The position numbers were made by a program, and so were the translations under genes. From Elusimicrobiota bacterium (GTDB taxonomy: Bacteria > Elusimicrobiota > Elusimicrobia > F11), in the NCBI GenBank assembly GCA_044221725.1, contig JBGAON010000005.1, positions 128,001 to 192,000 on the forward strand: a stretch of 64,000 nucleotides of DNA, given 5' to 3'. Of this stretch, positions 1-64,000 are shown in pieces (the first letter of the stretch is position 1; the number at the start of each line of letters is the position of its first letter). The notes beneath the pieces were generated by a model that saw only the letters and a program-made list of their open reading frames with translations, did no database searches and had not been told where the DNA came from.

Positions 1-2406
1 CAGCTCGATATTGCGGATCAGGTAAGGAAGCTCATCAAAAACAATCCGGACGTCGTGGTCGCGCTAGAGGGATTTTCTGGCCGGTACGATCCGACCGCGG
101 TGAGATCGTTTGTGCTGCCGAACCTCGTCGCAACAGTGTCCCAAAATCTTCTCGAACAGAATAAAATTTCCGGAGCCATACACGGTGTTTGGACGGCCGA
201 CCATAACGCACAGGTGGTTGGTATTGATGATGATGGCCACCACGAGTCAAACGTTACCGCGTATTTAAGATCGCGGTATTTTTTCGATAAGGCCGAAGCG
301 AAACTGCGACGCGATGAAGCGCGAATTTCGAAAGAAAAGCGCCTTCTTTTTCATCGTTCTTTAAGAAGATTCGACGCGATGGTAGAAAAATTCACAACCA
401 CTCAATCCGAGCTTTCTGCCTATTTGTCCGAAGTCGCCGCCAATGCGCCCGAAAACTATCCCGAAATCGCTCGCTATGTCCGGGTGGATTCTGCCGAGCG
501 CGACTTTCAAATGAACCGTGCCATTCTTACCCAAGCGGTTCACATTTCCGGCGAACGTCTTTTGTCTGAAACGAAGGTTGCCGAGAAAGCGGCTTACGAG
601 CATCTCTGCCAAAATGAAAACGAACGGAAGTTGGTGAGCGCTGGCCGCCGGCTCCGGCTTGTCCGAAAATTATTGACATTTTCGCTGACGCGGCAGGAAT
701 GGGAAGATTACAAGCTCCAGCGTTTCCACCAACAAACCGATTTGGAACCGTTTGAAAGTTTTTACCGCGAAGCCGAAATCCGCGATGCATTGATGGCGAA
801 GAATGTTCTTTCTTTGGCGAAGAAAAACAAAACGATTGTGCTCGTCACGGGCGGATTCCACGCCGCTTCGATGGATCGGGCTCTTGTTGCGGCTGGTGGT
901 TCGGTGCAAACGTTCGTTCCCAAAATCTCGAGGCCGATCTGTCGTGACGGATCCTCGTATTTAAATTCTTTTCTCGCCGATCACCCAGTCCCGCATCGCG
1001 CTCTCGTTGAGCTGGTTGATGAAGTCGGAAAAATCGCTTTGCAGCGAAAGAAAATTTCCGCAGCGGCGTTCCAAGGCTGGGCTCAGAAAGTGTGCGAACA
1101 TCCTGATTCGAGCCGAGCCCGAAAAAATGTGATTGCGGATCGGCTGTTGCGCGTGCTTGGTTTGGATGATCGGTTAAAGATTGCGGTGCTTTTACAAAAA
1201 TCATCTTCGGACGGACCGGTTCTCATCGAAACGATTGAGTTGCCAGAAGGTCCCATGAAACATGGACTCGAAATCCTTCGGGAGCGACTGAAAGGAAATC
1301 GGTTTTTCTTGCTGCACCGGCACAATCGATTAATCGCTGTCTATCCGGATCCGGCGCAATTTAAAGATAAGCGCGGACTCGAATATTTTGACTTTTCGCC
1401 GTTTTACACCGATGTTCCGCAGTTCGGTACAGACGACATGATGAATCGTTGGGCCGCCTTTGCGACGCAGCGCGAACAGGATTTCAAAGAAGTGGATTAT
1501 TTTGCGAACTATCTTTGCACGCTCAATCACTTCAAATATTTTTATCCGGTTTCCAAAGAAGCCTATGGTTTTAATCTTGTCAGCGTTGACGTTAACGCGC
1601 GCCATCTGAGTGTCACGCGGCTCGATCTCAAAGCGCCCCAACGGACGCTGCATCCGTTGCTCTCAACGAACGCCCATGTTCGACGCTTTATTTTGCCCAT
1701 TTTTCCAACGGTCTATAATCCTGAACCGGTTTTTGGCGAAGACAAAGCCTTTTATGAAACCGTTTTGAAAAGCGGCCTGACGCAAGAATGGTCCGATAAT
1801 TTTGCGGCTCTTGTGGTGGGCGCGGGCAGCGGATTTGACTCTGTGATCCTTTATCTTGCTTGGCTTTTGTCTGTCGGAGAAGATGCATTGTCCTCAAAAC
1901 GGCAACCCAAGATGGGGTTTCGACTTCGAGACATTAATCCAATCGCACGTGAGAATGCGTTGGTGACCGCTGCGTTGGTTGGCTTTCCGGTGGATGCTCA
2001 AGTGGGCGATAACGCGCCGACCGAGGGAAATTTTGACATGGTGGTTTGGAACATGCCGGCGGCTTACGATCGTCATCGTCCGCCAACAGGAGTTTCTGCT
2101 CGTTTTGAGTTTGCGCACGACGGCGACCCTGACTTTTTGACGTTACGGGTTTTTGCATCTCGATTGCCAGCGCTGTTGCGCACGGTTGGCGGTCTCGGAA
2201 TATTTTGGAACACGAACGGGCTTTCCAATATTGCGGTGCGTCTTTTCGAGACGGCAGGAAGGAGCACGGAAGACGATGAGACGCCGAAACTCATGGACGT
2301 CGAAAAGCTTTCACGAGGGAACAGACCCGACGATGCAGCGACCTACACGGTCACCCATTTGAACAGCTTTTTGCATTCAAATCGCGCTGTTTTGGCTTCT
2401 TCGTGA
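1..2406 (+). CDS. 5'-truncated modular protein: conserved family N-terminal domain plus C-terminal class I SAM-dependent methyltransferase (HemK/PrmC-like)
   Basis: Frame is open from base 1 (QLDIADQVRKLIKNNPDVVVALEG), so the gene starts upstream of the window. It carries the family motifs ALEG, VGIDD, FSLTRQEW, FESFYREAEIRD, VTGGFH, VPKIS..SSYL. The C-terminal part has VVGAGSG (motif I), DINP and DMVVWNMP (motif IV-like). Confidence 0.8.
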   Translation, partial: QLDIADQVRKLIKNNPDVVVALEGFSGRYDPTAVRSFVLPNLVATVSQNLLEQNKISGAIHGVWTADHNAQVVGIDDDGHHESNVTAYLRSRYFFDKAEAKLRRDEARISKEKRLLFHRSLRRFDAMVEKFTTTQSELSAYLSEVAANAPENYPEIARYVRVDSAERDFQMNRAILTQAVHISGERLLSETKVAEKAAYEHLCQNENERKLVSAGRRLRLVRKLLTFSLTRQEWEDYKLQRFHQQTDLEPFESFYREAEIRDALMAKNVLSLAKKNKTIVLVTGGFHAASMDRALVAAGGSVQTFVPKISRPICRDGSSYLNSFLADHPVPHRALVELVDEVGKIALQRKKISAAAFQGWAQKVCEHPDSSRARKNVIADRLLRVLGLDDRLKIAVLLQKSSSDGPVLIETIELPEGPMKHGLEILRERLKGNRFFLLHRHNRLIAVYPDPAQFKDKRGLEYFDFSPFYTDVPQFGTDDMMNRWAAFATQREQDFKEVDYFANYLCTLNHFKYFYPVSKEAYGFNLVSVDVNARHLSVTRLDLKAPQRTLHPLLSTNAHVRRFILPIFPTVYNPEPVFGEDKAFYETVLKSGLTQEWSDNFAALVVGAGSGFDSVILYLAWLLSVGEDALSSKRQPKMGFRLRDINPIARENALVTAALVGFPVDAQVGDNAPTEGNFDMVVWNMPAAYDRHRPPTGVSARFEFAHDGDPDFLTLRVFASRLPALLRTVGGLGIFWNTNGLSNIAVRLFETAGRSTEDDETPKLMDVEKLSRGNRPDDAATYTVTHLNSFLHSNRAVLASS

Positions 2407-21976: not shown

Positions 21977-23748
21977 CGATCACTTGGTGATTAGCCAAGT
22001 TGTTGGAAACTCCATTAGTCCTTCTGGTTTTAATCAAGAATGGGTGGAAGTTTTTAATCCCACCACATGGACGTGGACTGCGTCGAATGTCGGACTTAAA
22101 TTCCAACGCGCGCCCAGCATCGATCCTGTCCCCGTCAACATTGCGATTAACTACGTTTCTGCGTCCATCGCGCCGGGCCAATTTTATTTGTTTGCAAACA
22201 CAACCACGATCACGGCCTCCGGGGCACCGGTGAGCGCGGATGCGACTTGGAGTTTAACGGCTGGCACCAACGACACCGCTTTTAATCCACGGTTCAGTGC
22301 AGCGAGTCCCAACATCATCACTACCTACGAAGATTCAAGTGCGTGGGGGAGAGGAAGCCTGATACTTTACAATGTCGCCAACGGATACACATTGGACATG
22401 ATGGGATGGAAAGGCGATGGTTCTCAGTCTCCTCCTCTTTACGAAGGAAGCCCCATGACGCAAGTTCAGGGACTGAATGATAGCGAGCAGTATTTCCGTC
22501 TTTCGAGTACGAGTGGTTATAACCCGGCTTATGGGCCGGCCTATGACTCAGGAAATAACGATGTGGATTTCGGGGCATTGAGTTCGGTGGGGTGGTTACC
22601 GAAAAATACACTTACAGCGACGGTTCCAATTGTTTCTGGTGTCCCAGCGATAGGCGCTTTTGTGACAGCGACGGATGGTCTTTCGCAAGTAGCCAATGCC
22701 AGTTCTTTCGGGAATCCTCCTTGCGCGCGGTTCCAATTAACATCGGTGGCAACGGGAACGTGGGTCGTATTCATCGCGAGCTCCAATGTATTCATGGAAA
22801 TCTCGTCCGTTACTGTTTCGCCGAACGCCACGACGTATATTCCGAATGCCACAACGTCTCCTTCATGGCCCGCTAACGGATACAACGCGGTTGTTCTTTC
22901 ATCGGCAGCGACCCAAGGATATGTTACGGGAACCGTGTTAAGCGCGATGGGCATCCCTATCAGTCCGTCCATCACGGTGAGTGCCAATGCTCTGACCGCC
23001 CAAGCAAACACTTCGAACGGGTCTTATCTTTTGCCTGTTCCGCCAGGCACTTATAACGTCATGGCCAATGCTCTCAATCAGAATTCACTTTACGTATACG
23101 ATTCGTCGGAAAGCGTTGTGGTCGCGTTGGGAGAGGTTACGTCAAATGTCAATTTCACTTTGACCCAAGGTGGAAAGATTCGCGGGTTCTGCACCCGAGA
23201 TGGCACAAACGCCCTGCCGGGAATTGTGTTTACCGCAGTAAATGCCGGTGGGGCCACAATCGATCAAGAAGTTTCGGGAAGCGATGGCAGGTATTTGCTG
23301 CAAAATCTATCGACGGGAACCTACACGGTTACTCCGACATTGGATTCCGGAGAAGTGGCATCGCCGACCAGTTCGGCCGTTACCGTAACGGCGGGCGCTG
23401 TTGTTTCGGCTGCCACGTTCACCATCACGGGAGCATTTGGAAGTGTGGCGGGCAGCGTGACCGATGCGGGAGCGGCCATAAAAACAGGCGTTGTTATCGT
23501 TTGTTCGACAATGACATTGTCCAGCGGGCCACCGCGTTTGAGTTCAAGCACGTTGACCACTGCGGCGATCTATGTGAGCAACAGCTATGAAGATGGAACC
23601 TATGCGATGGATGTTCGGGGCAGCACAAACACCACGTACGTTTTGTACGCGTATTACCCCAAATCCAATGGAATGGGATTTACCGTGAGCTCCCGCACGG
23701 TGACCAATGTTTCTATCACGCCGGGCGTGCGAACATCGGGAGTCAATT

Positions 23749-24252
23749 TTGCTTTCTGATTTTAAAAGAAATCGGCATGGAACGACCCTGCTCGAGATCA
23801 CGATTGTGGTCGCTATCATGGGTGTGTTGGTGATGATTGCGCCGAATTTGTATCGGCAGGTTCGAAAATTTTTTTTCCTTAATAACGCACGTATCGATCT
23901 TCAACGCGAAGCGCGCACCGTCATGGAACTCGTCACGCGACGTTTGCGGCAAGCGCAGCCAACAACGTTGGTGATGGATCAAGTAAGTGGACAGCCTTAT
24001 TATTCGCGAATTGCCTTTACGGATATCGATTCAAAAGCCACGGTCTATTATCAAAACGGTAAAAATCTCATGATGGTCGTGAATGGTTCGACATCGACGT
24101 TGACTGCGAACTTACGTTATCTCGCATTTGCTTTGCCCCGGTCGGATGATATGGGCATTGTTTCTGTTTCAATCACACTTGAGAAAACAATCTATCAAGG
24201 TCAAACGAAGGCTCTGCACATGGCTTCAGAAAAAGTTCGGGTGATGAATTAA
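23749..24252 (+). CDS. Prepilin-type minor pilin / pseudopilin (PilW/GspJ-like)
   Basis: G|TTLLEITIVVAIMGVLVM motif. TTG 23749 has GGGAG upstream and overlaps the previous stop (track start 23707). Confidence 0.82.
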   Translation: MLSDFKRNRHGTTLLEITIVVAIMGVLVMIAPNLYRQVRKFFFLNNARIDLQREARTVMELVTRRLRQAQPTTLVMDQVSGQPYYSRIAFTDIDSKATVYYQNGKNLMMVVNGSTSTLTANLRYLAFALPRSDDMGIVSVSITLEKTIYQGQTKALHMASEKVRVMN

Positions 24253-25667
24253 TGAGAGACAAATCGAAAGGATTTGCGCTGCCGATTGTTTTGGCGATTC
24301 TGTTGGTTTTCATGGTTCTGCTTCCGGCCATTGTTATGTTTACGCAACAGGACACGAAAATGTCGGTGAAGACAATAAAAACAAGCCTGGCCTTTAACCT
24401 TGCCGAAGCAGGAATTGATAGAGGCATGTGGAAGCTAAAAAGTTCATCATCCACTTTCGCCGCCGCGTTGAACGGAACCGCTGTAACCGGTTACAACTTT
24501 GATTCAACTTACACGGACGTTCCAGGGGGCAAATACCGCATTAAATTTTCTTCAGGTCCCGCGTCCAAGCAAGTAACAATTTGGGCCGAAGGACGCGACA
24601 CCGCCGGAAATCAAACCCGGTCCATCAAAGAAGTTGTACAGAATCAGACGATCTACAGTGCGTTGATGGCGGGTGGAAATATATCGTGGGCCAAAGGCTT
24701 GTGTGTCTATTGGGGACCCATCATGTCACAAGGAGATCTCACGCTAGCCGACGACAGCGTTGCGGGTTGGTATTTCCCATTAAAATACGCGAAGGGCACC
24801 GTGATAGGGACGGCCACAAACCCGAGAGACACGAACAGTTTGACGCCACCCAACACGGACAACACGGAGTGGTGGTCCGAATACGACGGTGTTCCCGATG
24901 TTCCTGTTCTTGATTTTGCTGCGCTGCGATCTTCTGCCGCCGCGACCGGTACGTTAAATGTGTACGGATGTCGTTCCACTCAGGGCGGTGCCGGCACGAA
25001 TAATAGTGCGACCGCGTGGGACACACGTGCCTCTTGCTCGTCGGCCGGCGCTCATGCCACCCATTTCGGTAACTCGTGGTGCCATCCGAAATCGGCGCGC
25101 AACACTCCCTCCACGAATTATGTTTGGTATTGGGATGGAGATGTCACATTGAGCGGCGCTTGGTGTGGTTCAAGTCCTTGCAATCAAAGCACGGGATTAA
25201 GAGGCACTTTTATTGTTCGCGGCAATCTCACAATTGATACACCGGGCGAATACAATTACACGGGCAATGTGCCTACGAACGCATGGCAGCAAGAAAACAA
25301 ATTAACGAAAACGACGTTCGACAGTTCGTCGGCCTCCGAATATCCGGGAGATCTCGGGCTTCATAACAGCAAAGCCACGTATGCTTTCGGCACGGATAGC
25401 TGGTGTCAACCTCTATCCGGTTGCGGATGGCGAGCCACCGTCGGTCTTAGAGGGTTTACCTATGTCGGCGGGAACCTAACCATTCTCCAATACCTTGATT
25501 TCAATGGAGCGGTGTGGGTGAATGGAACGGTAACGGCAAGCGGAGGGACCTCCACCACTTTTTGCACCGTATTTTACGACGATACGTTAACGGTGCCGGC
25601 CCTTAATGTAATTCTCATTCGTGTATCATGGAACGAAGTGGCTCCGAGTTCCACTGTCTGGAACTGA
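24252..25667 (+). CDS. PilX-like minor pilin with Cys/Trp-rich C-terminal domain
   Basis: KG|FALPIVLAILLVF lacks Glu5, and AFNLAEAGIDRG is the PilX N-terminal signature. Translationally coupled (TAATG). Confidence 0.82.
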   Translation: MRDKSKGFALPIVLAILLVFMVLLPAIVMFTQQDTKMSVKTIKTSLAFNLAEAGIDRGMWKLKSSSSTFAAALNGTAVTGYNFDSTYTDVPGGKYRIKFSSGPASKQVTIWAEGRDTAGNQTRSIKEVVQNQTIYSALMAGGNISWAKGLCVYWGPIMSQGDLTLADDSVAGWYFPLKYAKGTVIGTATNPRDTNSLTPPNTDNTEWWSEYDGVPDVPVLDFAALRSSAAATGTLNVYGCRSTQGGAGTNNSATAWDTRASCSSAGAHATHFGNSWCHPKSARNTPSTNYVWYWDGDVTLSGAWCGSSPCNQSTGLRGTFIVRGNLTIDTPGEYNYTGNVPTNAWQQENKLTKTTFDSSSASEYPGDLGLHNSKATYAFGTDSWCQPLSGCGWRATVGLRGFTYVGGNLTILQYLDFNGAVWVNGTVTASGGTSTTFCTVFYDDTLTVPALNVILIRVSWNEVAPSSTVWN

Positions 25668-25756: not shown

Positions 25757-28700
25757 GTGAAAAAATCCCTCGTAAGGAGCGTTGCGGCGGCTCTATCGGT
25801 TGTTTATTTTGCAACGAACATTGCGTGGGCACACCAATCAGCCGTTGTCGAATTGGATTTCCGGTCTCACGCGACAATTTGGGCGGACCGCAAACCAACA
25901 GAGCCGTACCCAAAGACTCCGCCAACAAAGCTCGCCGCCCTGCCTGCCAACATCAATGCGCAACTGCCCTCGATCAATCGCCAATTCTCTGCGATCAAAG
26001 AAAACGCCGCTTCGATTTCTTCCCGCATAAGTAATTCGCTTTCGGAGAAGAACGCGCAAATGCTGGCGCCGCTTTTTCGCACGCTGCCGCAAACCGCGGG
26101 CACAATTCGAAAAATTGAAGTACCGCGCGCGGAGCCGCGCGGAGTCGTCGTGCACATTCAGGATGTCCACCGAAATTTTGAAGCGCAAACGAATATCGGG
26201 AACGCCGTCGAGCAGCTGACCCGTGCGAATCTCGTTCAAGCGGTGGCGCTCGAAGGCGCGTTCGGTCCGATTGATTTGTCGTGGTACAACAATTATCCGT
26301 TTCAGGATTCGGTGAAAACCGTTGCCGACTACTTATTAAAGGAACACCGAATTTCTGGACCCATCCGTGCGGGTATGACCGCGGCGAAGAACCAGGAACT
26401 AGGAACATCGTACATCGGTATTGACGATCCCACTCATTACGCCGCCAATGTCCGGGCCGTGCGCGCCGCAAAGACAGCCGAGACGAACATCAAAGAGGAT
26501 CTCGAAAAACAAAATCGCGAGCTCGCCGCTGCGAAACTGAAATATTTCAGCGCTGCGCTAAGAGATTTCGATCGTCACGTGGAGGCTTATCGCCGCGGAA
26601 ATGTTTCGTGGGGCGATCACGTGGAATATCTTTCCGACAAATCCGTAACGCGGGTTTCTCCACGCATCGACGCATTCCTTGTTGCATTAACGATGGAGAA
26701 AGAACTGAATGTTGCGGCGATCGAATCGGAGCGTGCGCGACTGCTTGAAAAGCTGGCGGGCAAGCTATCGAAGGGCGAAACGAACGAGTTGCTAGCGATG
26801 AGCGCGGCTTTCCGTGATGGGCGCCTTAATCACGCTGACTTCTATTCGTTTTTGAAAAGATTCTGCCAACAGAAGTCCATCGACCTAGCGAGCTACCGTT
26901 CATTCGACGGGTATGTTCGTTACGTGTTGCTTTGCGAGCGTTTGGATGTGGAAGCAATTCTCGAAGAAGTGGCGACGCTCGAAAAAACAACCTATTCATC
27001 GCTCGCACGAACAGAAAAAGAAAAGGAATTGGTGCAAACGGCGCGCGGGCTGTATTTGGCGGGGAAATTAACGGATTTTGCGCTGACGAAGGAAGAGTGG
27101 ACGGAATATAGGAGTGAATTTATAACATGGGGAGGGAAAAGGCCCTTTGAAGAATTTTATAAGCAGGCCGAGCTTCGAGACTCGGCAATGGCCAATAATC
27201 TCATCCACGTACTACGTAGCCGGTACAAAGTACCACGTACGTCTCTCAGCATCCTTGTCACCGGCGGCTTCCACTCGACCGGTATCGACCGCCAACTTGT
27301 GGACGCGGGATACACCGTCGTAACCTACATTCCGAAAATTTCGAAAGTCGACGACGTCGCGGGCTCTTCCTACCTCAGCGTGTTCACGCAGGAAAAAACG
27401 CCGCTCGACCAACTGTTCGCGGGCGAGAAACTTTTCTTGGCCGAGAAGCCGGTTGCCTCTGCCGCAATGATGTCGTCGAGCGTGCACATGGTAAATCAAA
27501 TTAATCATCGCGGCGCAGAATCTCCAGCACCATTGGATGTTCCAGCAAAAGACGTTGCCGAGACCAAGGTGAACGGTGACGAAGCGCAAATGCCGATGAA
27601 GGGTGGTATTTTGAAAATTCGGGCGAGATCTGGTGGCTTGCTTGATATTCGATTCAACCCGTCATTGCTTCAGCGAATTGCGGGTGTAATCGCGGTGGGC
27701 GCCCTCATGTTGTTTGCTGGCGTTTTGCCCGCGCAAGATTTTGCGCAAGGTTCCCAGGGAGCGCCGGCGGCCACGGCGCAAGATGCGAATGCTGTCTCGC
27801 TTGCGTTGAAAATTACGGGCGTGTTCTTCGGCTTGTTTGCGGTGCTCCAAACCGTGATCACTGTTCAGCGCACATTCGAATGGAACCTTCGCGATTGGAA
27901 GCGCGGACAGGTGAGGCCAAGAGAGATGCTTTCCATGGCAGGCTCGTGGCTGTTCGTTGACATTTCTTTGCCCGCGATGTTCGGCACGGCGTGGATGATT
28001 TTGCATCTTGGATACAACTTCGCGATTTCAAACATTGGGATGCGGGCGCTCCTTTTTGGAGCTGAGAAAGAATATTTCACTTTTATGGCGATGACACTTT
28101 TCCTTGCGATCGTTCTTTTTCTGCTACGCGATCCCCGGTTGTATTCTGTCCGGCAGGAACGCGAAGGCGTGACGTCCGGGCCGGAGGGAAATAACGACAG
28201 AGCGCATTTGCGCTATTTGGTCCCCTGGCTTTTTGCACCGATCATCGCCGGCGCGATGCCGAGCGCGATGTTGGCCCAGTCGGGCGCGCCGCCGGTGGAA
28301 AATTCGAATCGCGGTTTTTATCAAGCCGCCGCCAAGAATGCTGCGGTGGAAATTGCGCCGGAAGCTGACGCTGCTCAGCCGAAATGGAAGGAATTAATGA
28401 ACTTCGGTTTCCAATTCACGGCGACCGGTGACATTCGCGGCGGCTGGGGCAAAACCGATTTTGATTGGAACCGCACGAAAACCGAGCAGGCGAAATTGGT
28501 GGAGATGTTTAAAGGCAACGTGTACACGACGTTCGTGAATGATTTCGACCAAAAATTGAAAGACCGTGAGCTCACGGCCAAATTTCTCAAGAACCCGACA
28601 TGGCGCAAGAAAAAGATTGATGAGATGGTCGAGCTCGCAAAAGGCAGTCTCGGCGTCGGAATTGATTTTGAAAACATGTCGCGCAACAGCACGGCTGATT

Positions 28701-31700
28701 TCAAGTTGTTCATTGAAGAGCTCGCCAAAGAACTCCACGCGAAAAATTCAAAGCTTTGTGTGATTGTCGAGCCCAAGACCGATACAAACGTCGGTGATCG
28801 CGGACGCGCGATTGACTGGGCGCATCTCGCAAAACACGCCGACGAAGTTCAGGTGATGGCCTATTGGTACGGGCAAGGCCCCACCCGGCCCGACCAGATT
28901 GCGCCGCTCAGTTGGATCAAGCAAATGGTCGCGCTCGCGGAAAAACAGGGACTCAAGGGAAAATTCACCGTCGCGCTCACCACATTCGGTTACGACTGGG
29001 CTTTGGATGGGTCCGGCCGGCAGGCGCTCAGCAAAACCGCGTTCTCGGAAATCGAAGCGCAGAAAGCGAATTGGAAGCGCTACGCGGACGGCGGCTCGAT
29101 TTACTACGAATACACAGCGAACGACGGCAAGCAACACCGAGTTGTCACGGAAGATCTCGTCAGCATCCAACAAAAATACGAAGAGTTGAAAAAATTACAG
29201 ATCCCCGTCGTGTTGTGGGCGTTTGGTTTTGGTGACCCGGAAATTTTTAAGTGGGGTGAAAAAGCAGGTCTGTCCGTTTATCTTCCCTACTTTAGCGAGC
29301 CGGTCAAAGAGCTTTTGCGCAAACCGCAAACGCCGAAGACCGATAAGGTTGACCTGCAATTCCGCGGAAGCCCGTTTTTCCTCTTGGCATTGATCGGCCT
29401 GTTCATCGGTGCGCCGTTGTCGTTCGCGAATTCCAGTTCGGTCTCCAATTCCGCGAACGCCGGGACTCCGTCGGTTCCGGTTTTTGCTCAAGCTGGTTTG
29501 CTTAAAGAATATTGGTTCCTTCCTGTGATTGTTGGAATCGTAACTGCCGCGGTCATCTTTTTTATTTTGCGGAGCCGGTGGCCTAGCAATCCGCCGGCGA
29601 CGGTTATGGAAGCGCCGACGCCGAATTACGCGTCGGACGAAGAACTTAAATCTTTCGTCGAGCGAAATCTTGCCCGATCGTATCTTGACGTGCCACGGAT
29701 TTTGGTGGATGCACGACAAATAGTCGCCCCGCCTTCTGTTCAGGATCTGGTTGGTCGTCTTATTGCCGTGTGTGCTGATTTTGTTGCGACGGAACAGCGC
29801 ATCGAAGACGCCGACGAAGCCGGATCAAAAATAACTGCTGTACTGAAAGCCATTCAATCCCGAGTGAAATTGAAAGTTGAAGCTCGTTACATCTCCCAAC
29901 AAACGGCCGACGATTTTTGGATTACAGATGAGCAGCTTTTATCGAGAACCGCAGAATTCTTGGATTGGATGAATGATGGCCTTGCCGGCGAACGCAAAAA
30001 GCCGGCCACGATGATTCCCGAGCCAGATTTGGTATTGCCCACCGGCAATGAAGTGGGAACATCCTTCGTCGTAAGCATCGGCGGAACGAATGGTTTCTTG
30101 CAGGAAGTAACGCTGTTGGGCCACGGCGAATTTGAGAACAAAGGCAAAACGCGCGTCGATATTTTGCGCTACAAACAGGATATTTCGGGCATTTTCGACG
30201 AATACGCCCAGGCGATTGCCGCGCGCATGGGAAACCAAAAAAAAGAGCAACGTTCGGTTGGTGTTGTTTGGGCGCATCCGGTTGAAAAGATCCGCGGGAA
30301 GGTGATCGCGCGCGGCTTGTCAAAAGGCTGGCTCGATCCGCAGAAGAAAGTTGTGGACCAGGATATTCAGCAATTGTTCAACGATGCGCTTCGACGTGCC
30401 GGTCTTGCGAACGTAACGGTCAGTATTGTCGTGAACGATACCTTTAATCCGCTGGCGGCACTGTCGTACATTCTTATTGGCAAACGCAAAAAGACCAAAG
30501 CGGCGCTTGCCGGTGCGATTTTGGGCACCGGTTCGAACGAAGCTTTCTTCGTGCCGGGATTTGGTTGGATAAACGGCGAGACCGGCGCCGATGATATGAC
30601 CAACCGCGATGGTTACGAACTATTTTCTACGCTCGAAGACAAAATTGTCGCTGCCGAAGATCCCGTCAATGAACACCGCTTTGAAAAACGTGTCGCTGGT
30701 AATTATCTCGCGAAGCTGTTTGTGCTGCGTCTCAAAGCAATCCGAAACGGAACAGGCATGTTTCGCTGGCTCGACGAAATTCCCCAATTTCGCGACGAAA
30801 CATTGGACAGTTCGTTCCTGTCGTTTGTTGCGGACAAAAATATTCGGGACCTGATTTCCATTGAGCGAAAAATTCGGGAAATGTATTGGCGATCGCGCAA
30901 ACATTCCCGTTTTGTTGCCAAGTTGTTGTCCCACACGGAAAAAACTTCTTTCGCGAGCGATCACGAATTGTTTGTGATGTACGAAGCCGTAAAAGCGATT
31001 GCCGAACGATCCGCACGGCTTTTGGCCACGCATTACGCGGGTATCGCGCTGCGAAACGATCCGGAAATTAAGGAGCCGCAATGGTTCGCCGTTGAAGGCA
31101 GCGTGTTCAACAAATACCCGGGCTACAAAGCCATGGTGATGAATGCGATTGTGAAAATTGTCGGAGTGGAAAAAGCCGCCCGCATCGAATTGATCGGAGC
31201 CGAGGAAATTGCCCAAAATCTCGAAGGCGTGGGCGCTGCCATTCTCGCGATCACGGCGTACAACAAGCAGCGTGTTGCGCCACACGACGCGGTAAGAGTT
31301 TTTGAAGAGCTTCGCGCCGCGTCCGGCGGACGGCGGGTCACGGTTGTCGGAGCCAATGATTTTGCGGTGCAACATGAGGCTATTGGAAATCTGTTTAACG
31401 TCGCGGGGCCCACGGAAATCGCTGTATTAACGGGAGGCAACTGGGCCCAAACCGGCGCGCGTGTCGAAGCGGCACCGCATACGAAAGCCATTGGAGTATC
31501 GTCCGAAGATTTTCTGCAGTTGCTAAACATTTTCGCGGAAGCGTTCTCCAATTTGAATGGCGTGAACCAGCACATTGTTCAAGAATTCCGAGAGGCGGCG
31601 CAGCGATCGGGCGTGCTCGTGCCGAGAGAATTCTTGACTGGCCTTCACGTTACACCCGACGCGATTTACAACTCGCATCCGGCGGTCGGTGCACTGAACG

Positions 31701-33346
31701 AGGCGCTCCAGCATCTTGCTTTACCGGCGGAGCACCCCATTCACTCTTTCGGGCCGAAAGATACGCACGTGTACTATCTGGACTTGGTTGTGCGGGATCG
31801 TGAAGGAACTGTGCGCGTGGTACCCACCCATCGAAGCGCACCCATTATCGCGAGCGACGTCGAAATTCTCGGTATGGGACCTCGAACCATGGAAGTGTGG
31901 GCCAATATCATCGCGGAATCCGGTGGCATTATTCAGCTGGGCGCCGCACCGCACGTCGATCTGCCGACAGGCCAACATTACAGGGCGGCGGGGGTCAAAG
32001 CGCGCATGCACGATCTCGCCTCGCAAGGCCTCGTCGTTGAAGAATTCTTAGATGGAGTGACGCGCTACACATTGAAACTGCCGACAAACGCGGTCGACTT
32101 GCGTGCGGACTCTGTTTCGACGAATTCTGGGGGCGCTGCGTCAGCGGCGGGCTATCACGGGCTTATCGTGTTTTTTACGCCGAGTCGAAAAGTTTTGATC
32201 GCTTCCGTGCTTTTGTTGGTAACAGAAATTGGCGGACTTTTGTGGGGAAATTCCCATTCGTTGTTGCTTGGGGCCACCATCGCTGCCGCGGCTCCGTTTC
32301 ATGTCGTTTTTGCGGAGCAAGGCAAAGATCCGTGGCTCGCGCGCGCCAATCAAAATGACCAGATGCTCGGTCATGTGTTGACTTGGGGGCTTTATCCGCT
32401 CGCGTTTCTTGCGATGCGCGGCTTATCGGCGATGATGTTGCCGTTGCCAGCGGTCGCTTATGTTCCTCTGGCCGCTGCGGTCGCCTATCATTTGCAAAAA
32501 GATTTTCGCTATTTCCGCCAAACGTTGAACCGCATTCGTGCTGCTGAAAAAATTGCGGCCGTGAATCACGCAATCGAAAGTTCCCCAGCGGATTCCAACG
32601 GGAATGCGAGCGTGCAACACGTGCTCGCGAATCTTCGAGCGCGGGATCGCAAAGATGGCGGTCTCTCCAAAAATATTTCGGAACTCACGCCACATTTAAC
32701 GAACAAAATTTGCACGTCACCGCTGTTGAGATGGTCGCGGATCGTCATGTTAAGCGCTGCAATGTTGGGGACGAACGGAATAAGCCAAGCGAACACCGCC
32801 AACGTGAAGCTCGACCGCGGGAGCAACATCGTCACGGTTGTGGTTATGGACGCGAGCGATGTCGAAGACAAAAAGGGAAGCCTGTTGCACGACACGCTGC
32901 GCAATATCGAAAAGCAGATTCGAGAGGGGAAGCTTGGCGCGACGGTCACCGTGGCCATCCCGGAATCGATGGTGGAAGACGCTTCCGCTCTCAGGGAAAG
33001 TGCCAAGCGATTGGCGCTTGATTTTGACGTTCCGGTCGTCGTGACGATTGACCGCGCGATAATCGGTCGAGGATTTGATCAACCGAACCGTTTCACGTTG
33101 AACCAACACTACGATGACGCTACGAGAGAAGTTGATAATCACGGTTCGCACAAGGCCGCGGAAAAAATTCGTTTCTACCAAAACAAAAATTTTGCGGGCG
33201 TGAACGTGAAAGTGGTGGCTTCGAAAGCGACGCCGTACACGGCGAATGGCGCGCTGACCCAAATTGCGCAGATGACAATTGCTGGCGTGACGATTTCTAT
33301 CAGCGAAGCAATCAAGCTCGCCGAACTCGCCTACAAGATGGCGTAA
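25757..33346 (+). CDS. 2529-aa modular membrane protein: family N-terminal domain, GH18-like domain, hexokinase domain, possible SLOG-like domain, TM segments
   Basis: Signal peptide, then IQDVH, ALEGAFG, VTGGFH, SYLSVFTQEKTP. GH18-like GVGIDFE, QVMAY, LWAFG. Hexokinase SIGGTN, VNDT, ILGTGSN, NGETG, FEK, EGSVF, GVGAA. Confidence 0.85.
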   Translation: MKKSLVRSVAAALSVVYFATNIAWAHQSAVVELDFRSHATIWADRKPTEPYPKTPPTKLAALPANINAQLPSINRQFSAIKENAASISSRISNSLSEKNAQMLAPLFRTLPQTAGTIRKIEVPRAEPRGVVVHIQDVHRNFEAQTNIGNAVEQLTRANLVQAVALEGAFGPIDLSWYNNYPFQDSVKTVADYLLKEHRISGPIRAGMTAAKNQELGTSYIGIDDPTHYAANVRAVRAAKTAETNIKEDLEKQNRELAAAKLKYFSAALRDFDRHVEAYRRGNVSWGDHVEYLSDKSVTRVSPRIDAFLVALTMEKELNVAAIESERARLLEKLAGKLSKGETNELLAMSAAFRDGRLNHADFYSFLKRFCQQKSIDLASYRSFDGYVRYVLLCERLDVEAILEEVATLEKTTYSSLARTEKEKELVQTARGLYLAGKLTDFALTKEEWTEYRSEFITWGGKRPFEEFYKQAELRDSAMANNLIHVLRSRYKVPRTSLSILVTGGFHSTGIDRQLVDAGYTVVTYIPKISKVDDVAGSSYLSVFTQEKTPLDQLFAGEKLFLAEKPVASAAMMSSSVHMVNQINHRGAESPAPLDVPAKDVAETKVNGDEAQMPMKGGILKIRARSGGLLDIRFNPSLLQRIAGVIAVGALMLFAGVLPAQDFAQGSQGAPAATAQDANAVSLALKITGVFFGLFAVLQTVITVQRTFEWNLRDWKRGQVRPREMLSMAGSWLFVDISLPAMFGTAWMILHLGYNFAISNIGMRALLFGAEKEYFTFMAMTLFLAIVLFLLRDPRLYSVRQEREGVTSGPEGNNDRAHLRYLVPWLFAPIIAGAMPSAMLAQSGAPPVENSNRGFYQAAAKNAAVEIAPEADAAQPKWKELMNFGFQFTATGDIRGGWGKTDFDWNRTKTEQAKLVEMFKGNVYTTFVNDFDQKLKDRELTAKFLKNPTWRKKKIDEMVELAKGSLGVGIDFENMSRNSTADFKLFIEELAKELHAKNSKLCVIVEPKTDTNVGDRGRAIDWAHLAKHADEVQVMAYWYGQGPTRPDQIAPLSWIKQMVALAEKQGLKGKFTVALTTFGYDWALDGSGRQALSKTAFSEIEAQKANWKRYADGGSIYYEYTANDGKQHRVVTEDLVSIQQKYEELKKLQIPVVLWAFGFGDPEIFKWGEKAGLSVYLPYFSEPVKELLRKPQTPKTDKVDLQFRGSPFFLLALIGLFIGAPLSFANSSSVSNSANAGTPSVPVFAQAGLLKEYWFLPVIVGIVTAAVIFFILRSRWPSNPPATVMEAPTPNYASDEELKSFVERNLARSYLDVPRILVDARQIVAPPSVQDLVGRLIAVCADFVATEQRIEDADEAGSKITAVLKAIQSRVKLKVEARYISQQTADDFWITDEQLLSRTAEFLDWMNDGLAGERKKPATMIPEPDLVLPTGNEVGTSFVVSIGGTNGFLQEVTLLGHGEFENKGKTRVDILRYKQDISGIFDEYAQAIAARMGNQKKEQRSVGVVWAHPVEKIRGKVIARGLSKGWLDPQKKVVDQDIQQLFNDALRRAGLANVTVSIVVNDTFNPLAALSYILIGKRKKTKAALAGAILGTGSNEAFFVPGFGWINGETGADDMTNRDGYELFSTLEDKIVAAEDPVNEHRFEKRVAGNYLAKLFVLRLKAIRNGTGMFRWLDEIPQFRDETLDSSFLSFVADKNIRDLISIERKIREMYWRSRKHSRFVAKLLSHTEKTSFASDHELFVMYEAVKAIAERSARLLATHYAGIALRNDPEIKEPQWFAVEGSVFNKYPGYKAMVMNAIVKIVGVEKAARIELIGAEEIAQNLEGVGAAILAITAYNKQRVAPHDAVRVFEELRAASGGRRVTVVGANDFAVQHEAIGNLFNVAGPTEIAVLTGGNWAQTGARVEAAPHTKAIGVSSEDFLQLLNIFAEAFSNLNGVNQHIVQEFREAAQRSGVLVPREFLTGLHVTPDAIYNSHPAVGALNEALQHLALPAEHPIHSFGPKDTHVYYLDLVVRDREGTVRVVPTHRSAPIIASDVEILGMGPRTMEVWANIIAESGGIIQLGAAPHVDLPTGQHYRAAGVKARMHDLASQGLVVEEFLDGVTRYTLKLPTNAVDLRADSVSTNSGGAASAAGYHGLIVFFTPSRKVLIASVLLLVTEIGGLLWGNSHSLLLGATIAAAAPFHVVFAEQGKDPWLARANQNDQMLGHVLTWGLYPLAFLAMRGLSAMMLPLPAVAYVPLAAAVAYHLQKDFRYFRQTLNRIRAAEKIAAVNHAIESSPADSNGNASVQHVLANLRARDRKDGGLSKNISELTPHLTNKICTSPLLRWSRIVMLSAAMLGTNGISQANTANVKLDRGSNIVTVVVMDASDVEDKKGSLLHDTLRNIEKQIREGKLGATVTVAIPESMVEDASALRESAKRLALDFDVPVVVTIDRAIIGRGFDQPNRFTLNQHYDDATREVDNHGSHKAAEKIRFYQNKNFAGVNVKVVASKATPYTANGALTQIAQMTIAGVTISISEAIKLAELAYKMA

Positions 33347-33506: not shown

Positions 33507-36500
33507 TTGATTCAATTCCGACGCGTATCCACGATGATATTTGCGCCAAAAACAATCGCGATTTTGTTGGTTTCGGTTCTCACATACGAAACTGTTGGTA
33601 CACCTCTAGCAGAAGCCAGTCAATACAGCTCGCTGTGGTCCGAACGACGCAAAACTTCCTCTGCCACTCAAAACGAAAACGGCCAGAATCTTCTCGCTTC
33701 GCTTCCGTCCCAGTCTCTTCTGAAGCAAATGCCGTCGGTGAAAGCGGCGCTTCCGTCCTCCGTCGTAACAACACCGATCTCGAATGAAGCAAGAAAAATT
33801 CCGCCGGTGTTGCGCGCGCTCGTGGCGGCTGTTCCCCAGAATCAGGGCATCGTGAGAGAAATTTATGCTCCTCTCTCATCGAGCAACGAACCGATTGTGT
33901 TGGCGCAAGACGTGCACATGAATTCGGAAGCGCAAATGAATTTGGCCGGGGTCATCCAAAATATTGTGCGCGAAAACAAAATTGATGTGATCGGAGTTGA
34001 AGGAGCGTTTGCGCCGTTCGATTTTGCTCTCGCACGCAAAAGCGGTTCAACGGAATCGCGCACACAATTGGCCAAGGCTTTTATGGACAAAAAACTCATG
34101 GGCGCTGCTTCCTACATTGGTCTCGTGAACGATTCGCTACCGCCCATCGTCGGTGTCGACGATGAGAAACACTACGATGCGAACGTGCTTGCGTATTTGA
34201 CGATCCGGCCGATGAAAAAGAAGACGCAGAAAGACCTTCAGAAGCTCAAGCGAAACTTGGATGAACGAAAGGCACAGGAATTCTCGAAAGAAATGCTCGC
34301 GTTCGACGCGTTGCGCAGCGGTTACCACGAAGGAACAATCCCGTTTGGTGTGTATGTAAAAAAGCTTTCGGCGCTCAGCTATCAGCTTGTTGATAGTTCG
34401 TCTTCGCCGGACAGCGGAAAGCGGATCGCTGAAAGCTCTCTCGCCGTTGAGCAGTTCATCGCCGCGTACGAAATGGAAAAGTCACTCGACTTTGCGCGCG
34501 TCGAAGCCGAACGCCGACGCGTGATCGAGAAACTCGCATCGGTGCTCAAAGGCGAGGATGTCACGACGCTCATCAATCACAGCGTTGCGTACAAGAACGG
34601 ACAGATCGGTTTTGGAACTTACTACCGTTTCCTTAAAAATTTGTGCGAAAGCAATGGCGTGCGCCTAAGCGACACGACCGCGTTCGATAACTACGTTCGT
34701 TATGTCTTGCTGTCCGACGGTATCAAAGCGGATCAATTGTTCGCAGAAATCACGAACATAGAAGACCGGGTGACAAAGGCGCTCGCACGCACGCCCGTCG
34801 AAAAGCAGTTGGCTGACGAAGCCGAGCATCTCGCGCTGGCGAACAAGCTCATTGAGTTTGAGTTGACGCCGGAGGAATGGGCCAAGTATTCGTCATCCGG
34901 GCATGATTTTGGCCGGGATCTAGGTGCTCTTGAGGATTTGACCGCTTTTGAAAATTTCTACCGTGAAGCCGATATCCGCAGCCACCGCATGCTCTCGAAT
35001 TTGCTGGGACGAAATCGCCAGCGGGCATCGGTTCTGCTCACCGGCGGTTTTCACACCTCGCAAATGACGTCGTTGCTCAAAGAGAAGAAAATACCCTACA
35101 TCGTCGTGTCGCCGAAGCTCACAAAAGTCTCTGAGGACGAATCGGGCAGCGCGTACCTAAGCGAATTCTCACGGGAAAAAACTCCGCTTGAGAAAATGTT
35201 CAGCGGTTCAAAACTTTTTGTTCTGCCAAAAACACAAATGGCCGGTTCGGCGGGCGGCCTCACAACATTCAAAGCGTTTGTGGTTTTCTTGATCGGTATT
35301 GCCGGCCTATCCACGGGAAAAACCCGGGCGGATGTGGATTTGACCATCAACAATGTTCCGGTGCACGCGGTGGTTCAGCGCGGCGATATCCGCGGCGCTG
35401 TCGAAACCGTGGAGTTATCAGAGAAGGGTACCCCACAAACCTATTCTCTTTTGTATCCGTCGCTTTCAGCGCGCGGCATGGATTTCTTTTTTAATCGCGT
35501 CGCTTCACCGAAACGGCTCGTCATGGCCTTGGGCGGCATTTTAAGCGCTGTATTGCTGTCGCCCGCTCCGGCTCAAGCGGCTTTGGCCCCAAGGCTCTAT
35601 GGCGTGGCCGCCGAAACGTTGTGGGGGGCCGCCGGTGGCGCGTTAATTTTTTCGCTTATCATCGGCAATTTTTTGTGGACCCGTTTCAATACACGGGAAC
35701 CAAGAGTGAGCCCGCAACCCGACAATCGTTTTCGTCCAGGCCTCGACCAATTGGAGCAAAAAGAAACCCCGGCGAACCTGAACGTGTGGGTGGATCCGAA
35801 TGGTGTTGTGCGCCCCGATGTTTTAACCGGGGGATTTAGCGATCAAGAATCAAAATCCGGTTTGCCGAGCGTGGAAGTTCGATTGGCCGATGGTTTCCAT
35901 TTCTCGAACGGGGATCTCGTGCGCGTTTCGCTCAGTGGTCCGGCGGGTTCGCAATCTTCCGGCTGGGTTCCAGCGGCCGATCGCATGGTTTTCCCCTACC
36001 ACGGCGAAACGGGCATGGGGCTGCGCGCCGTGCATGCGGATGGAACAGACGCCGTCGCAACTGCCGTGCCGGGAAGTTTCGCAACGGCAATCCCCGTCTC
36101 GGAAGCGGCGCCTGGCAATCTCGGTTCGTTCGATTTGTTTACGGTGCGCACGCCTCCCGAAGAACCGGTTCAAGACCGAATCAGCGTGAACAACCAAAGC
36201 GTGAACGGTGACCGCGTGCAATTGCAGTATTCGTTACCGTCCGACATGTTGGTTCGGTTCTCGCACGTAAACGCCGGAGCCAACGGCCAAACCGAACTTG
36301 GGTCGGGAACCGACTTTTTACCGGCGACACAGTTTAAAGACGGATACGCGATTCTCATTGCGAACGGACCGCTGAGAGCCGGGAATTCTGCTGATATCGG
36401 ATTTGCGGCGTATCGGTTGGATGCCTCGGGAAATTACGTCGAAGTGAAATTTCAGCCGGGGGAACCCGATTTGCCAATAACGGCCACGCTGGCGAACGCC

Positions 36501-61211: not shown

Positions 61212-64000
61212 ATGATCTACGCCGATCGAGAGCAAGTTTCAGTATTTGTTCGACTCAAAAAACTCACTGCGGTTTCCATCCTTTTTAGTTTCACGTTCAA
61301 CCAAATCCTTTTCGCGCATGTGCCCGAGACATCGGTTTGGTCCGAACGCCAACGAGCCCAGCCGTCATCCCGGCACGTATTTGGCCGGGATTCACGTGTT
61401 CTCCACGAAAACCTAGGTCTCGTACCAAAGGAACGTACCGGGACGATGGGTTCTCTCGCCGCCTTCTCCACGCTTCGTGAAACCTACAAAGGCGGGTCTG
61501 GTACATCCCTCCTTATTATTCAGGATATTCACTTAAACACCGAGGCCCAAGCGAACATTGTGAAAATGTTCGACGTGCTGAAAAAAGAAGGGCGCCTTGG
61601 CACCATCGCCACCGAAGGCGTTTCCGGAAAATTCAATTTCGCACAGTTTTTTGCGCCGGGCAATGAGTCGGCTCGCAAAGTGGTGGCCCAGGCATTTTTG
61701 AACGATAAACGAATTGCAGCTCCGTCGTATTTTGGCGTTACCGCTCAGCAGCCAAACGCGAACGTGTTTGGCGTTGATGATGAGTCGCTCTATGCTCGAA
61801 ATGTGCAGGCGTATGTTGACAGCTCGAAAAAACAGAAGGAGCTAGTTAAGAATATAGAAATCGAGCGCCGTGCCGTGGCTGAGCAGAAAAGAAAAATATT
61901 CAACGCCGACTTGATGCGTTTGGATTCGATAGTTGATTCGTATCAGGCGGGCAGCCTTCCGCTTGGAAAATTTTTGCCGCACCTTACGTTCACGTCGCCG
62001 GCGTTAAAGAAGTTCGCGGAAGCGTATGCGCTCGAGCAGAAAATCGATTTTGATCGCGTCGCGCGCGAACGCCGCTCCGTCATGGAAGTGCAAGCGCTTT
62101 CCGTTTCTCAGAAGAAAATGTTCGGCGATTATTTGCGCTACGTCGATTTGGCAAACAGCATCAACGCCGATGAACTTGTTCGCGAATTGCAGGCGGCCAC
62201 GAAAGCATCGTTGCTGGTTCTCGCAAAAACGCCAGCCGAACGCGAGCTGCTGCAAGCGTCTCGCGCGCTCGTTCTAAAAACACATCTTGTTAAGTTCTCC
62301 CTAACGCCGGAGGAATGGAAAGAGATCCGTGGCCTCAAAGGTGTCGGCTTTAAGCCGTTCGACGATTTTTATTCGCTGGCGGACTCTCGCAGCGAAAAGA
62401 TGGTCGAGAACCTGTTGAACGAAAGCTCAAAGCCATCCGTTCTTGTGATCGGCGGTTTCCACACGCCGGGGGTCACGGCAGCGCTCAAAAAGCGCGGCAT
62501 TGGTTATTCTGTCCTCACACCGAAAGTTACGAAGCTCGAAGATTCCGATTCCTCGTATCTGTCCATCTTCACGCGTGAAAAGACGCCAATCGAGAAATTG
62601 TTCGCTGGTGAAAAGCTTACGATCCTACCGCAGCAAGTGTTGATCGGAGGAAACGGTCGGCTTGCGCAACAGTCCAATGACTTGTTTCGCCTCGAGTTGG
62701 CTTTCACGGAACTCGCTGCACAAATTCGTGCGATGCGCATTCACCGGTATCAGAGCACCGTTGGTGAGAACATTGCTTACACCAACATTCAAGGTCAGGA
62801 TTATTATGGAATTGATCCGACGCTGGGAATCAATGTGCCGAAGGGATTCGAGAGACACGGCCTTATCACGGCGCCGGATGGAACGCGTGTCCTTCTCCTC
62901 GAGCGAACGTCCAAGAGCATTTTCTCCATTGAAGGATTGAAAGGTGCCGTACAAGCACTTAAAGATGTTAACAGCGTAATAGCAGCGAATCGTTACACGA
63001 TAACGCTTCTGGCGGGCTTGGTGTTGTTCGCATCGACGGGAAAAACATTCTTCCTTGGAATTGCGGCGCTTCCTTTTATTTTCGGCCTCACGATCGTTTC
63101 TTCCCCGGTCGGCGCGTCCAATTGGGTAGAAGAAAACACGCCTGGTTTGGCGGGCAAGAATATCATCGAAGTAACAATGGAGATGGCGTTACCCGATGCT
63201 GCGATCGAGGAGCTTTCGCGCCGCGGTGCAACCGATGACGAGCTCCGCGCCGTTGCCATGGCTTCTTCGACGGGCGGGATCGGTCCGTTGTTGCACGAGC
63301 GCGTTATTGCGCAGTCCAATTTGGGAGCCCACGTTACCGCGGTTTCGCTTTTGTACGACAAAGTGTGGGTTCAGAAATTCAAAAAAGACAAAGACGGTCA
63401 TGACATCATCAATCTCGAGAAAGTGGAAGTCGGGCATCTGCTGCGAAATTATTTCGAAAAAATGCCGTTCACGATTGATCTTGAAATGTACGACGAATCC
63501 ATTGTCACCGCAGAGGTGTACCGCGCACCAACTGGCCTTTACGGACGTGCCAACGTGTATTTCCTTTATCACCCGTCGATGACCGAAGTGGTGTACCCCG
63601 GCGAAAGAGATTTTCCGGATCCCCAAGAACCCGAAAAAACCACAAAGCGACGGCAGTTTAAAGAGACCAGCCGGTTGCAACAAAACTGGTTGGTGGGCCG
63701 GGGAACCTTGGCGTTGCTCGAAAAACTGAACGAACAGACCAACGTGGCGCCCGATGTTATCGTCATGAGCGAAATGCCGACGGTGTTTGTTCATCACCGA
63801 ATGTTTTTGGATCGGTTCTCGGAACACCCACTGTTCCGAAAAGCAAGTTATATTTTCAATGATCACACGCCGCTCGAATATGCGCATCCGAAATGGATGT
63901 GGCATGAACTGAAGAACATGCGACTTGACCCGCGCTATTACGAAGGAATTCCGTCCGTGTGGGGAAGCAAAGATGGGGAGCGGGCCGTTGATGGCACCGC
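61212..64000 (+). CDS. 3'-truncated fourth family member (>929 aa): N-terminal family domain plus alpha-glucan phosphorylase (GT35)-like domain; not in the ORF track
   Basis: My translation of the start, the middle and the end of this frame: MIYADREQVSVFVRLKKLTAVSILFSFTFNQILFAH..WSER..IIQDIH..ATEG..VIGGFH..SYLSIFTREKTPIEKLFAGEKL, then a TM, then EVTMEMAL..STGGIGPLL..VSLLY..RLQQNWLVGRG..IFNDHTP. No stop seen in the parts I translated, and all motifs lie in one frame. Confidence 0.88.
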   Translation, partial: MIYADREQVSVFVRLKKLTAVSILFSFTFNQILFAHVPETSVWSERQRAQPSSRHVFGRDSRVLHENLGLVPKERTGTMGSLAAFSTLRETYKGGSGTSLLIIQDIHLNTEAQANIVKMFDVLKKEGRLGTIATEGVSGKFNFAQFFAPGNESARKVVAQAFLNDKRIAAPSYFGVTAQQPNANVFGVDDESLYARNVQAYVDSSKKQKELVKNIEIERRAVAEQKRKIFNADLMRLDSIVDSYQAGSLPLGKFLPHLTFTSPALKKFAEAYALEQKIDFDRVARERRSVMEVQALSVSQKKMFGDYLRYVDLANSINADELVRELQAATKASLLVLAKTPAERELLQASRALVLKTHLVKFSLTPEEWKEIRGLKGVGFKPFDDFYSLADSRSEKMVENLLNESSKPSVLVIGGFHTPGVTAALKKRGIGYSVLTPKVTKLEDSDSSYLSIFTREKTPIEKLFAGEKLTILPQQVLIGGNGRLAQQSNDLFRLELAFTELAAQIRAMRIHRYQSTVGENIAYTNIQGQDYYGIDPTLGINVPKGFERHGLITAPDGTRVLLLERTSKSIFSIEGLKGAVQALKDVNSVIAANRYTITLLAGLVLFASTGKTFFLGIAALPFIFGLTIVSSPVGASNWVEENTPGLAGKNIIEVTMEMALPDAAIEELSRRGATDDELRAVAMASSTGGIGPLLHERVIAQSNLGAHVTAVSLLYDKVWVQKFKKDKDGHDIINLEKVEVGHLLRNYFEKMPFTIDLEMYDESIVTAEVYRAPTGLYGRANVYFLYHPSMTEVVYPGERDFPDPQEPEKTTKRRQFKETSRLQQNWLVGRGTLALLEKLNEQTNVAPDVIVMSEMPTVFVHHRMFLDRFSEHPLFRKASYIFNDHTPLEYAHPKWMWHELKNMRLDPRYYEGIPSVWGSKDGERAVDGT

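Follow-up and report, generated by a model that had tools for sequence, protein, structure and literature searches.

A predicted Tiki-superfamily hydrolase domain at the head of giant mosaic proteins in Elusimicrobiota

Closest described systems

The Tiki superfamily contains, besides peptidases, esterases and non-enzymes, and PMC6254334 describes several ways of using its active site. RRSP, a Ras/Rap1-specific endopeptidase of this superfamily (PDB 6a7h, 5w6l), employs E3900, H3902, E3930, R4001 and H4030 and is metal-independent; the metal is structural in EreB and Bcr136; Tiki itself is metal-dependent; and PMT, which lacks the residue set, is inactive. The head domain described here resembles RRSP in the order of acid-x-His, a Glu 28 residues later, Arg and His, so that RRSP may serve as an endopeptidase precedent without a metal requirement (same source). 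It differs from RRSP by Asp in place of the first Glu, by a helical insert of ~215 residues, by a signal peptide and by the Arg-to-His distance (29 residues in RRSP, R4001 to H4030, versus 32 in the head, R474 to H506), and the Foldseek match between the two is weak (E 0.17).

Three other groups share parts of this pattern. EreC and Bcr135/Bcr136 (PDB 6xcq, 2qgm, 2rad, 3b55) are the best structural matches and also have a core split by a helical insertion, but identity is only 12–17%, and the Ere proteins are small-molecule esterases rather than heads of mosaic proteins. ChaN (PF04187; PDB 2g5g) shares the fold, the acid-x-His followed by Gln, the Glu and the terminal Gly-x-His, whereas it carries Trp (in a Trp-Asn-x-x-Met helix) where the head has Arg, and true ChaN proteins occur separately in the phylum. 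The TraB/PrgY/GumN and Tiki peptidases (PF01963) share the R-x-x-x-M helix and an aligned Gly-x-x-His, and TraB/PrgY provides a precedent for an exported, membrane-tied peptidase, as described in PMC7117660.

In overall architecture the nearest relatives are the C39- and S8-headed giants of Omnitrophota, which also combine a signal, an N-terminal peptidase-like domain, membrane segments and mixed enzyme cargo (bioRxiv 10.1101/2023.11.21.568195 and 10.64898/2026.06.07.730766). Their head fold differs from ours, and the only C39 match in the genome studied here is a 354-aa frame. According to the former preprint, the N-termini of giants “generally lack identifiable domains”, C39 and S8 being the exceptions, and the word Tiki is absent from the main texts of both preprints. 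Our literature search, of partial coverage with subscription journals and supplements outside it, returned no work joining Tiki or ChaN terms with these phyla; a supplementary domain table could already name the head family. We also considered PMC11573180, PMC11257099 and PMC8939145. Export and possible cutting of giant mosaic proteins in Elusimicrobiota and Omnitrophota is an open question in the papers considered here, and the split genes described below make the processing idea testable.

Residues and predicted fold of the head domain

We analyzed a window of 64,000 nucleotides from an Elusimicrobiota genome of 2.82 Mb. Four large ORFs on the same strand (A–D) carry a shared N-terminal domain of ~430 residues, here referred to as the head, and the motifs that a sequence-only reading had placed there were confirmed by sequence in all four. 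The first motif reads QDVH at 26159 in ORF B, QDVH at 33906 in ORF C (33507–60095) and QDIH at 61521 in ORF D (61212 to beyond the window), while in ORF A it reads HDVH and lies 26 bases upstream of window base 1. The Glu-Gly at the strand end (26243, 33996, 61605 and 58 in ORFs B, C, D and A), the R[DS]xxM motif (27176, 34977, 62388 and 781) and the GGFH motif (27263, 35043, 62451 and 850) follow in the same order. The first motif had also been likened to that of the superfamily; here presence and position stood and the nature of the acid did not, since Q-D-x-H has Asp where the named families carry Glu (G-E-x-H in ChaN, E3900-x-H3902 in RRSP). The features are collected in Table 1.

Table 1. 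Coordinates of the head domains, their motifs and the annotated cargo in the window.
Feature	Coordinates	Strand	Basis
ORF B, 2,529 aa: signal, head, membrane segments, GH18, hexokinase, tail	25757..33346	+	sequence, domain search
ORF B predicted Sec-type signal peptide, probably cut after Ala25; family Thr-Asn/Gln present	25757..25831	+	sequence, leader profile
ORF B leader motif W-x-[DE]-R-[RK], shared with stand-alone heads	25880..25894	+	
ORF B head (residues 113-532): predicted Tiki/EreA/ChaN-type core, split by helical insert	26093..27350	+	model pLDDT 90, fold searches
Q-D136-V-H138 and Q144, end of first core strand	26159..26188	+	
E166, end of second core strand, 28 residues past H138 as in RRSP	26252..26254	+	
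Helical insert, about residues 225-439, mostly absent from compact paralogues	26429..27071	+	
R474-D-x-x-M helix	27176..27190	+	
G-G-F-H506	27263..27274	+	
Conserved head-cargo junction ending K-L-F-L-A-(P/E), low model confidence, candidate processing site	27371..27445	+	
ORF B cargo, GH18 domain (glycoside hydrolase family 18)	28583..29179	+	
ORF B cargo, hexokinase domains	29897..31252	+	
ORF B C-terminal amphipathic helix, last residue Ala	33296..33346	+	
ORF C (8,862 aa) head and junction	33846..35228	+	
ORF C tail ending in Ala	60045..60095	+	
ORF D head and junction; ORF D extends past the window	61455..62630	+	
ORF A head; ORF A begins upstream of the window	1..975	+	

The five residues D136, H138, E166, R474 and H506 (numbering of ORF B) are invariant in all 26 paralogues of the genome, where merely 17 of 280 well-filled alignment columns are invariant. 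Asp-x-His, Glu, Arg and His are likewise unchanged in 34 of 34 divergent relatives with a mean identity of 25%, and among 196 domains, a sample biased to the best matches, the set is kept in every one of the 183–190 rows that have the respective residue. The motifs are also present in 63 of 64 metagenome heads. In the model's secondary structure these residues map to core-strand ends and to the neighbouring helix, and from this topology the five would be expected to converge in three dimensions. The proposal of a catalytically intact residue set is thus supported by invariance in the sequences. Metal dependence, which the proposed metallo-hydrolase implies, is no more than a possibility; RRSP, with the same residues, works without metal.

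The model of ORF B residues 113–562 has a pLDDT of 90, except for its last 29 residues. Among 48,161 chains, the top four matches were EreC (Z 8.9, rmsd 4.1, 164 residues aligned), Bcr136 (8.8), ChaN (8.7) and Bcr135 (8.4), with HopBA1 seventh and PMT 23rd, and both halves of the head align to one EreC/ChaN core; Z values of 8–9 give modest support for the superfamily. With Foldseek the same model gave weak matches (EreC E 0.087). We also modelled a compact paralogue in which most of the insert is absent (pLDDT 88). Its Foldseek ranks 1–4 were Bcr135 (E 0.0046), HopBA1, Bcr135 and ChaN, and E never came down to 0.001 with either model. In the VIA comparison, ChaN led with Z 9.2 and superfamily members took ranks 1, 4 and 5; tetrapyrrole methylases tie with ChaN on Z, aligning about 100 residues versus 150–175.

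Sequence profiles agree in part. Pfam ChaN (PF04187) matches 14 of the 26 paralogues at E up to 0.1, with a best value of 3.7e-8; ORF B scores 16.2 bits, below the curated cut-off of 27.7. TraB/PrgY/GumN (PF01963) matches one of the 26 (E 0.0036), also below its curated cut-off, and at E 1e-10 neither PF04187 nor PF01963 has a match in the genome. Erythromycin esterase (PF05139) is not among the 18 Pfam families matched by the 26 paralogues, and PDB sequence searches returned no superfamily match. Profile-profile comparison with hhalign gave probabilities of 11 for ChaN and 17 for TraB (the TraB side being a two-row alignment), and only the second half aligned, weakly. As for the insert, weak Pfam PAH matches occur in 6 of the 26 paralogues, Sin3-type chains appear in the structural comparison, and a likeness to calmodulin or myosin light chain was found at E 6e-4. 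It seems to consist of two similar helix-Gly-helix units, which may be a compositional artefact.

Taken as model-based evidence, EreC, Bcr135/136, ChaN and HopBA1 as best structural matches, together with Pfam ChaN, favor the proposed Tiki/TraB/EreA/ChaN-type fold, in which helices pack against a core of parallel beta-sheet. Because these fold matches come with an invariant residue set of RRSP-like spacing, we consider it well supported that the head is a predicted Tiki-superfamily hydrolase with an intact site. We would place it in the superfamily but probably in none of its named families.

Distribution, stand-alone heads and split genes

A profile built from three window copies was run against the genome's 13,683 stop-to-stop ORFs; 26 matched, all with E of 1e-48 or better, and a second profile round over the same ORFs added no head at E up to 10. 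The 26 ORFs span 775–8,881 aa; seven longer ORFs of this genome have no head, and a stand-alone head is lacking there. In 204 proteins the head is near the N-terminus in every copy, starting at residue 149 at the latest, and it sits behind a signal-like peptide, often also behind a W-x-E-R-R motif. The tree places 25 of the 26 paralogues in a single clade, with terminal branches 0.4–1.35 changes per site long; P0163 was left out of this tree by a motif filter, and a scan with it gave no match.

Beyond this genome, 9,625 database clusters (50% identity) match the head at E up to 0.001. The closest relatives of the domain are labelled Elusimicrobia or Elusimicrobiota in 8 of 8 records, and the nearest Atlas clusters are unnamed and mostly from Omnitrophota where the phylum is known. 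The source annotation of head proteins is “hypothetical”. Across the phylum 65 of 201 genomes match, and among related genomes 22 of 41 do, with 15–43 matches in each of 21 positive relatives and zero in the remainder. These data make the head family a new and very large branch of a known superfamily, which would add to it an unannotated family of over 9,600 clusters. In the genus g48 (family f16), the genomes of 1.0–1.3 Mb hold few candidates at most (10 of 29 match), against dozens in larger relatives; these small genomes may be those of flagellate endosymbionts. In genome G077, two giants of 3,075 and 4,993 aa (L052 and L054) have heads equal in score and length, which suggests recent duplication or conversion.

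New here is that the head also exists as a stand-alone, predicted-exported protein beside or with headless signal-bearing cargo. Stand-alone heads are 341–623 aa long, have a signal-like peptide and end soon past the last helix. Intact ones number two in G043, two in G044 and one in G048, plus one broken fused copy and one contig-edge piece, and the heads of these three genomes belong to one clade. A leader profile of signal plus L[RA]xP found 22 matches in G043, 8 in G044 and 22 in G048 (14 of these being training rows); in the other 198 genomes, 76 have 1–6 weak matches, mostly to the signal part only. In G043, one stand-alone head lies behind a run of same-strand signal-bearing ORFs starting L-R-[PAV]-P. 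Altogether 38 leader-bearing proteins at 21 loci have no head, and 7 of 23 scanned headless proteins carry known domains, including transketolase, pyruvate oxidoreductase, phosphoglycerate mutase and enolase.

A second set comprised 77 metagenome loci of unknown taxonomy, with 14 fused and 53 stand-alone heads. L[AS][PA] follows 10 of the 14 fused heads, versus 31 of 604 cargo windows by chance. For 36 of the 53 stand-alone heads a downstream ORF is in view, and 35 of these have a signal-like stretch. Right past it, L[RK] or LA[AP] occurs in 34 of 35 partners versus 35 of 63 controls from the same loci and 78 of 332 from the window's genome, these and the other motif patterns having been picked after inspection of the data and 28 of the 36 partners being one family. 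The strict pattern L[RAS][PAV]P was found in 1 of 110 signal-bearing neighbours in these loci, and the looser one was adopted later. The 23 complete long partners have 0–1 membrane helices. At one locus (L248), split shortly ahead of the motif, the head stops at a point past which fused relatives run on, and the gene that follows carries a signal of its own and then L-A-A-P; its cargo is homologous to that of one fused protein. At another (L224:11407-21318), a signal-bearing, membrane-free fusion of aldolase, glucose-6-phosphate isomerase, phosphofructokinase and pyruvate phosphate dikinase (3,304 aa) lies behind a stand-alone head, and it has relatives in 37 of 51 such loci. The sequence pattern of split and fused genes ties the head to the start of the cargo, and it fits cutting and binding alike; either of the roles suggested by the sequence-only reading, autoprocessing or export targeting, may apply.

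In the head family the junction reads K-L-F-L (76%)-A/S (73%)-P (43%) over 164 of 196 rows. F-[LV]-x-[PE] occurs there in only about half of the 26 paralogues, ORF B having Glu at the Pro position, and the junction has a pLDDT under 50 in both models. A matrix of the headless motif scores best at the fused junction in 38 of 158 proteins versus 6.8 expected, a count that 4 of 43 column-permuted matrices reach equally, so the permutation control was not passed. The likeness of the junction to the headless cargo-start motif is accordingly suggestive only. In a scan of the window's genome for signal plus motif, 15 of 570 matched, none of them a clear headless family member.

Other sites were tried. 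A repeated internal GAR[LM]A site showed no enrichment (1 in 279,026 cargo residues versus 2 in 635,187 of background). R[GA]PP is enriched in cargo (37 among the matches listed versus 3 in background), but it was rejected as a universal cut site: it sits in membrane-module loops and does not occur in ORF B or in the window part of ORF D. It recurs between cargo membrane helices, e.g. at 56076–56087, and HExxH modules recur too. In ORF B (27677–29570), three membrane segments resemble signal peptides put to a second use, their ends being of the Ala-x-Ala kind (near residues 641, 821 and 1206), at which signal peptidase could cut the protein internally.

Possible roles of the head and the nature of its cargo

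The reading that we prefer, tentatively and at somewhat less than even chance, is that the head is a maturation peptidase acting at the Leu-[Ala/Arg]-Pro cargo-start motif after predicted Sec export, in cis or in trans. The head, fused or free, and the cargo would both be exported by Sec and meet outside the inner membrane. Catalysis may proceed by water activation on the His/Glu pair, by analogy with the mechanism put forward for RRSP and Ere. The head would act in cis in the four window proteins and other fusions, and in trans on the neighbouring cargo where the gene is split. Either way the cargo would be freed, and its defined new N-terminus would license it for further transport. More speculatively, the spare cytoplasmic enzymes and membrane modules might be destined for another cell. 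Cutting is preferred because the site has the residues of RRSP and TraB and has been kept throughout; that none of the 26 long-branched copies shows decay would be expected of a task that every chain requires. A headless 8,370-aa protein with the tail, together with the absence of a stand-alone head in the window's genome, counts against maturation. The unit is small: a stand-alone predicted enzyme of 340–620 residues, with five candidate catalytic residues and a candidate site left on the cargo by natural gene splits.

The split and fused pattern would be equally expected if the head bound Leu-[Ala/Arg]-Pro without removing it, either as a chaperone or adaptor in the periplasm that directs cargo to a transporter of the outer membrane or as an enzyme that modifies or ligates the N-terminus. 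We regard this as unlikely, while giving it appreciable weight: the insert is weakly like peptide-binding helical bundles (PAH, Sin3-type, calmodulin-like), the HlyB C39-like domain is cited as a chaperone precedent in bioRxiv 10.1101/2023.11.21.568195, and a prepilin-like operon lies upstream of ORF B. Yet if the head were an adaptor only, some copies should have been free to lose catalytic residues, and none of 26 has lost them; PMT, a non-catalytic member, lacks the motif, and the insert is dispensable in compact copies. That the nearest solved folds are esterases and effectors speaks for a surface or periplasmic hydrolase of an outside substrate, such as an ester or peptide of the host or prey envelope, which would accompany the cargo and open the way for it. 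PrgY, a peptidase bound to the membrane, acts outside the cell on a free peptide (PMC7117660), and Omnitrophota giant proteins are linked to predation in bioRxiv 10.1101/2023.11.21.568195. Such a role leaves unexplained why the cargo-start motif remains on the cargo after the gene split, and why G048 has a single head versus 26 intact ones in the window's genome; we hold it to be improbable.

Very improbable in our judgement is a non-catalytic ligand binder like ChaN, which binds haem, with the giants as sensors or scavengers in the cell's own inner membrane. ChaN is indeed the best Pfam match and the best VIA match of the compact model, and in 94 of 129 fused relatives a membrane helix lies no further than about 240 residues from the head. 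Against it, the head invariably carries the Arg typical of catalytic members at the position of the ChaN Trp, PF04187 is without a match in the genome at the stringent threshold given above, and split cargoes have 0–1 membrane helices. 

For the maturation reading, topology is a difficulty. Lys/Arg predominate on the N-terminal side of the first membrane helix past the head (60 vs 34 of 111, p 0.006), which argues against a simple arrangement of head outside and cargo inside, and the stretch past the junction is only mildly hydrophobic. This N-in lean, together with the membrane-free glycolytic cargoes, would fit delivery to another cell, the helix calls being crude. Extending the maturation reading, we consider unlikely, though worth stating, a protease-gated delivery pathway of several uncultured lineages, in which proteins with signal, Leu-[Arg/Ala]-Pro and a helix/small-residue tail would be exported, matured by the Tiki-fold head, be it fused or free, and delivered into a host or prey, whose metabolism spare glycolytic and signalling enzymes would reroute.

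The cargo itself is diverse. Besides the two enzymatic domain types of ORF B, recognisable cargo occurs in 9 of 17 scanned fused proteins, with dehydroquinate synthase, adenylate kinase, PP2C, kinase, sigma-70 and WD40 among them, while the 8,862 aa of ORF C gave no Pfam match under E 0.01. The signal-bearing fusions of cytoplasmic enzymes (aldolase, glucose-6-phosphate isomerase, phosphofructokinase, pyruvate phosphate dikinase) are a puzzle. That cargoes are the cell's only enzyme copies was rejected for the five enzymes tested, since ordinary separate genes exist for dehydroquinate synthase and adenylate kinase in the window's genome, for enolase and pyruvate oxidoreductase in G043 and for transketolase in G048; these five cargoes thus duplicate cytoplasmic enzymes as spares. 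The window's genome yielded no second gene resembling hexokinase. Contigs from RNA libraries were discarded as a sign of transcription, as they cover head parts but intergenic DNA too.

Ala is the last residue in 21 of the 26 fused proteins versus 107 of 1,033 other long ORFs, in 11 of 12 fetched ends of G077 (the twelfth end being unidentified) and in 5 of 5 of G032. With a matrix from 78 tails of other genomes, head-bearing proteins were 9 of the top 10 among 1,397 ORFs, while some rank low (427 and 1,274). The tenth is the headless 8,370-aa protein (G000:C5:256702-281814), which has the fourth-best Ala tail and a family-type signal. An attempt to assemble 97 tails into one C-terminal domain family failed, the largest group holding 8, and the Atlas gave no usable match for the C-terminal domain of ORF B. 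The tail may resemble C-terminal protease or unfoldase tags.

Directly upstream of ORF B, at 21942–25667, lie three ORFs, of which one has a prepilin N-methylation motif and one carboxypeptidase-regulatory-like repeats; judged from sequence, they may form an operon of the pilus or type II secretion kind, similar to what has been reported next to giants of Omnitrophota. A Mutator-family transposase (20610–21950) and an integrase-core transposase (60164–61129) flank the cluster, the second lying between ORFs C and D. At 11202–14224, a PorV/UPF0164-like protein stands beside an S8 peptidase with an end like the FlgD/Por secretion tail (weak matches). Several headless giants of the genome have tails that look similar to this FlgD/Por-type end, which suggests a second, separate export class among them.
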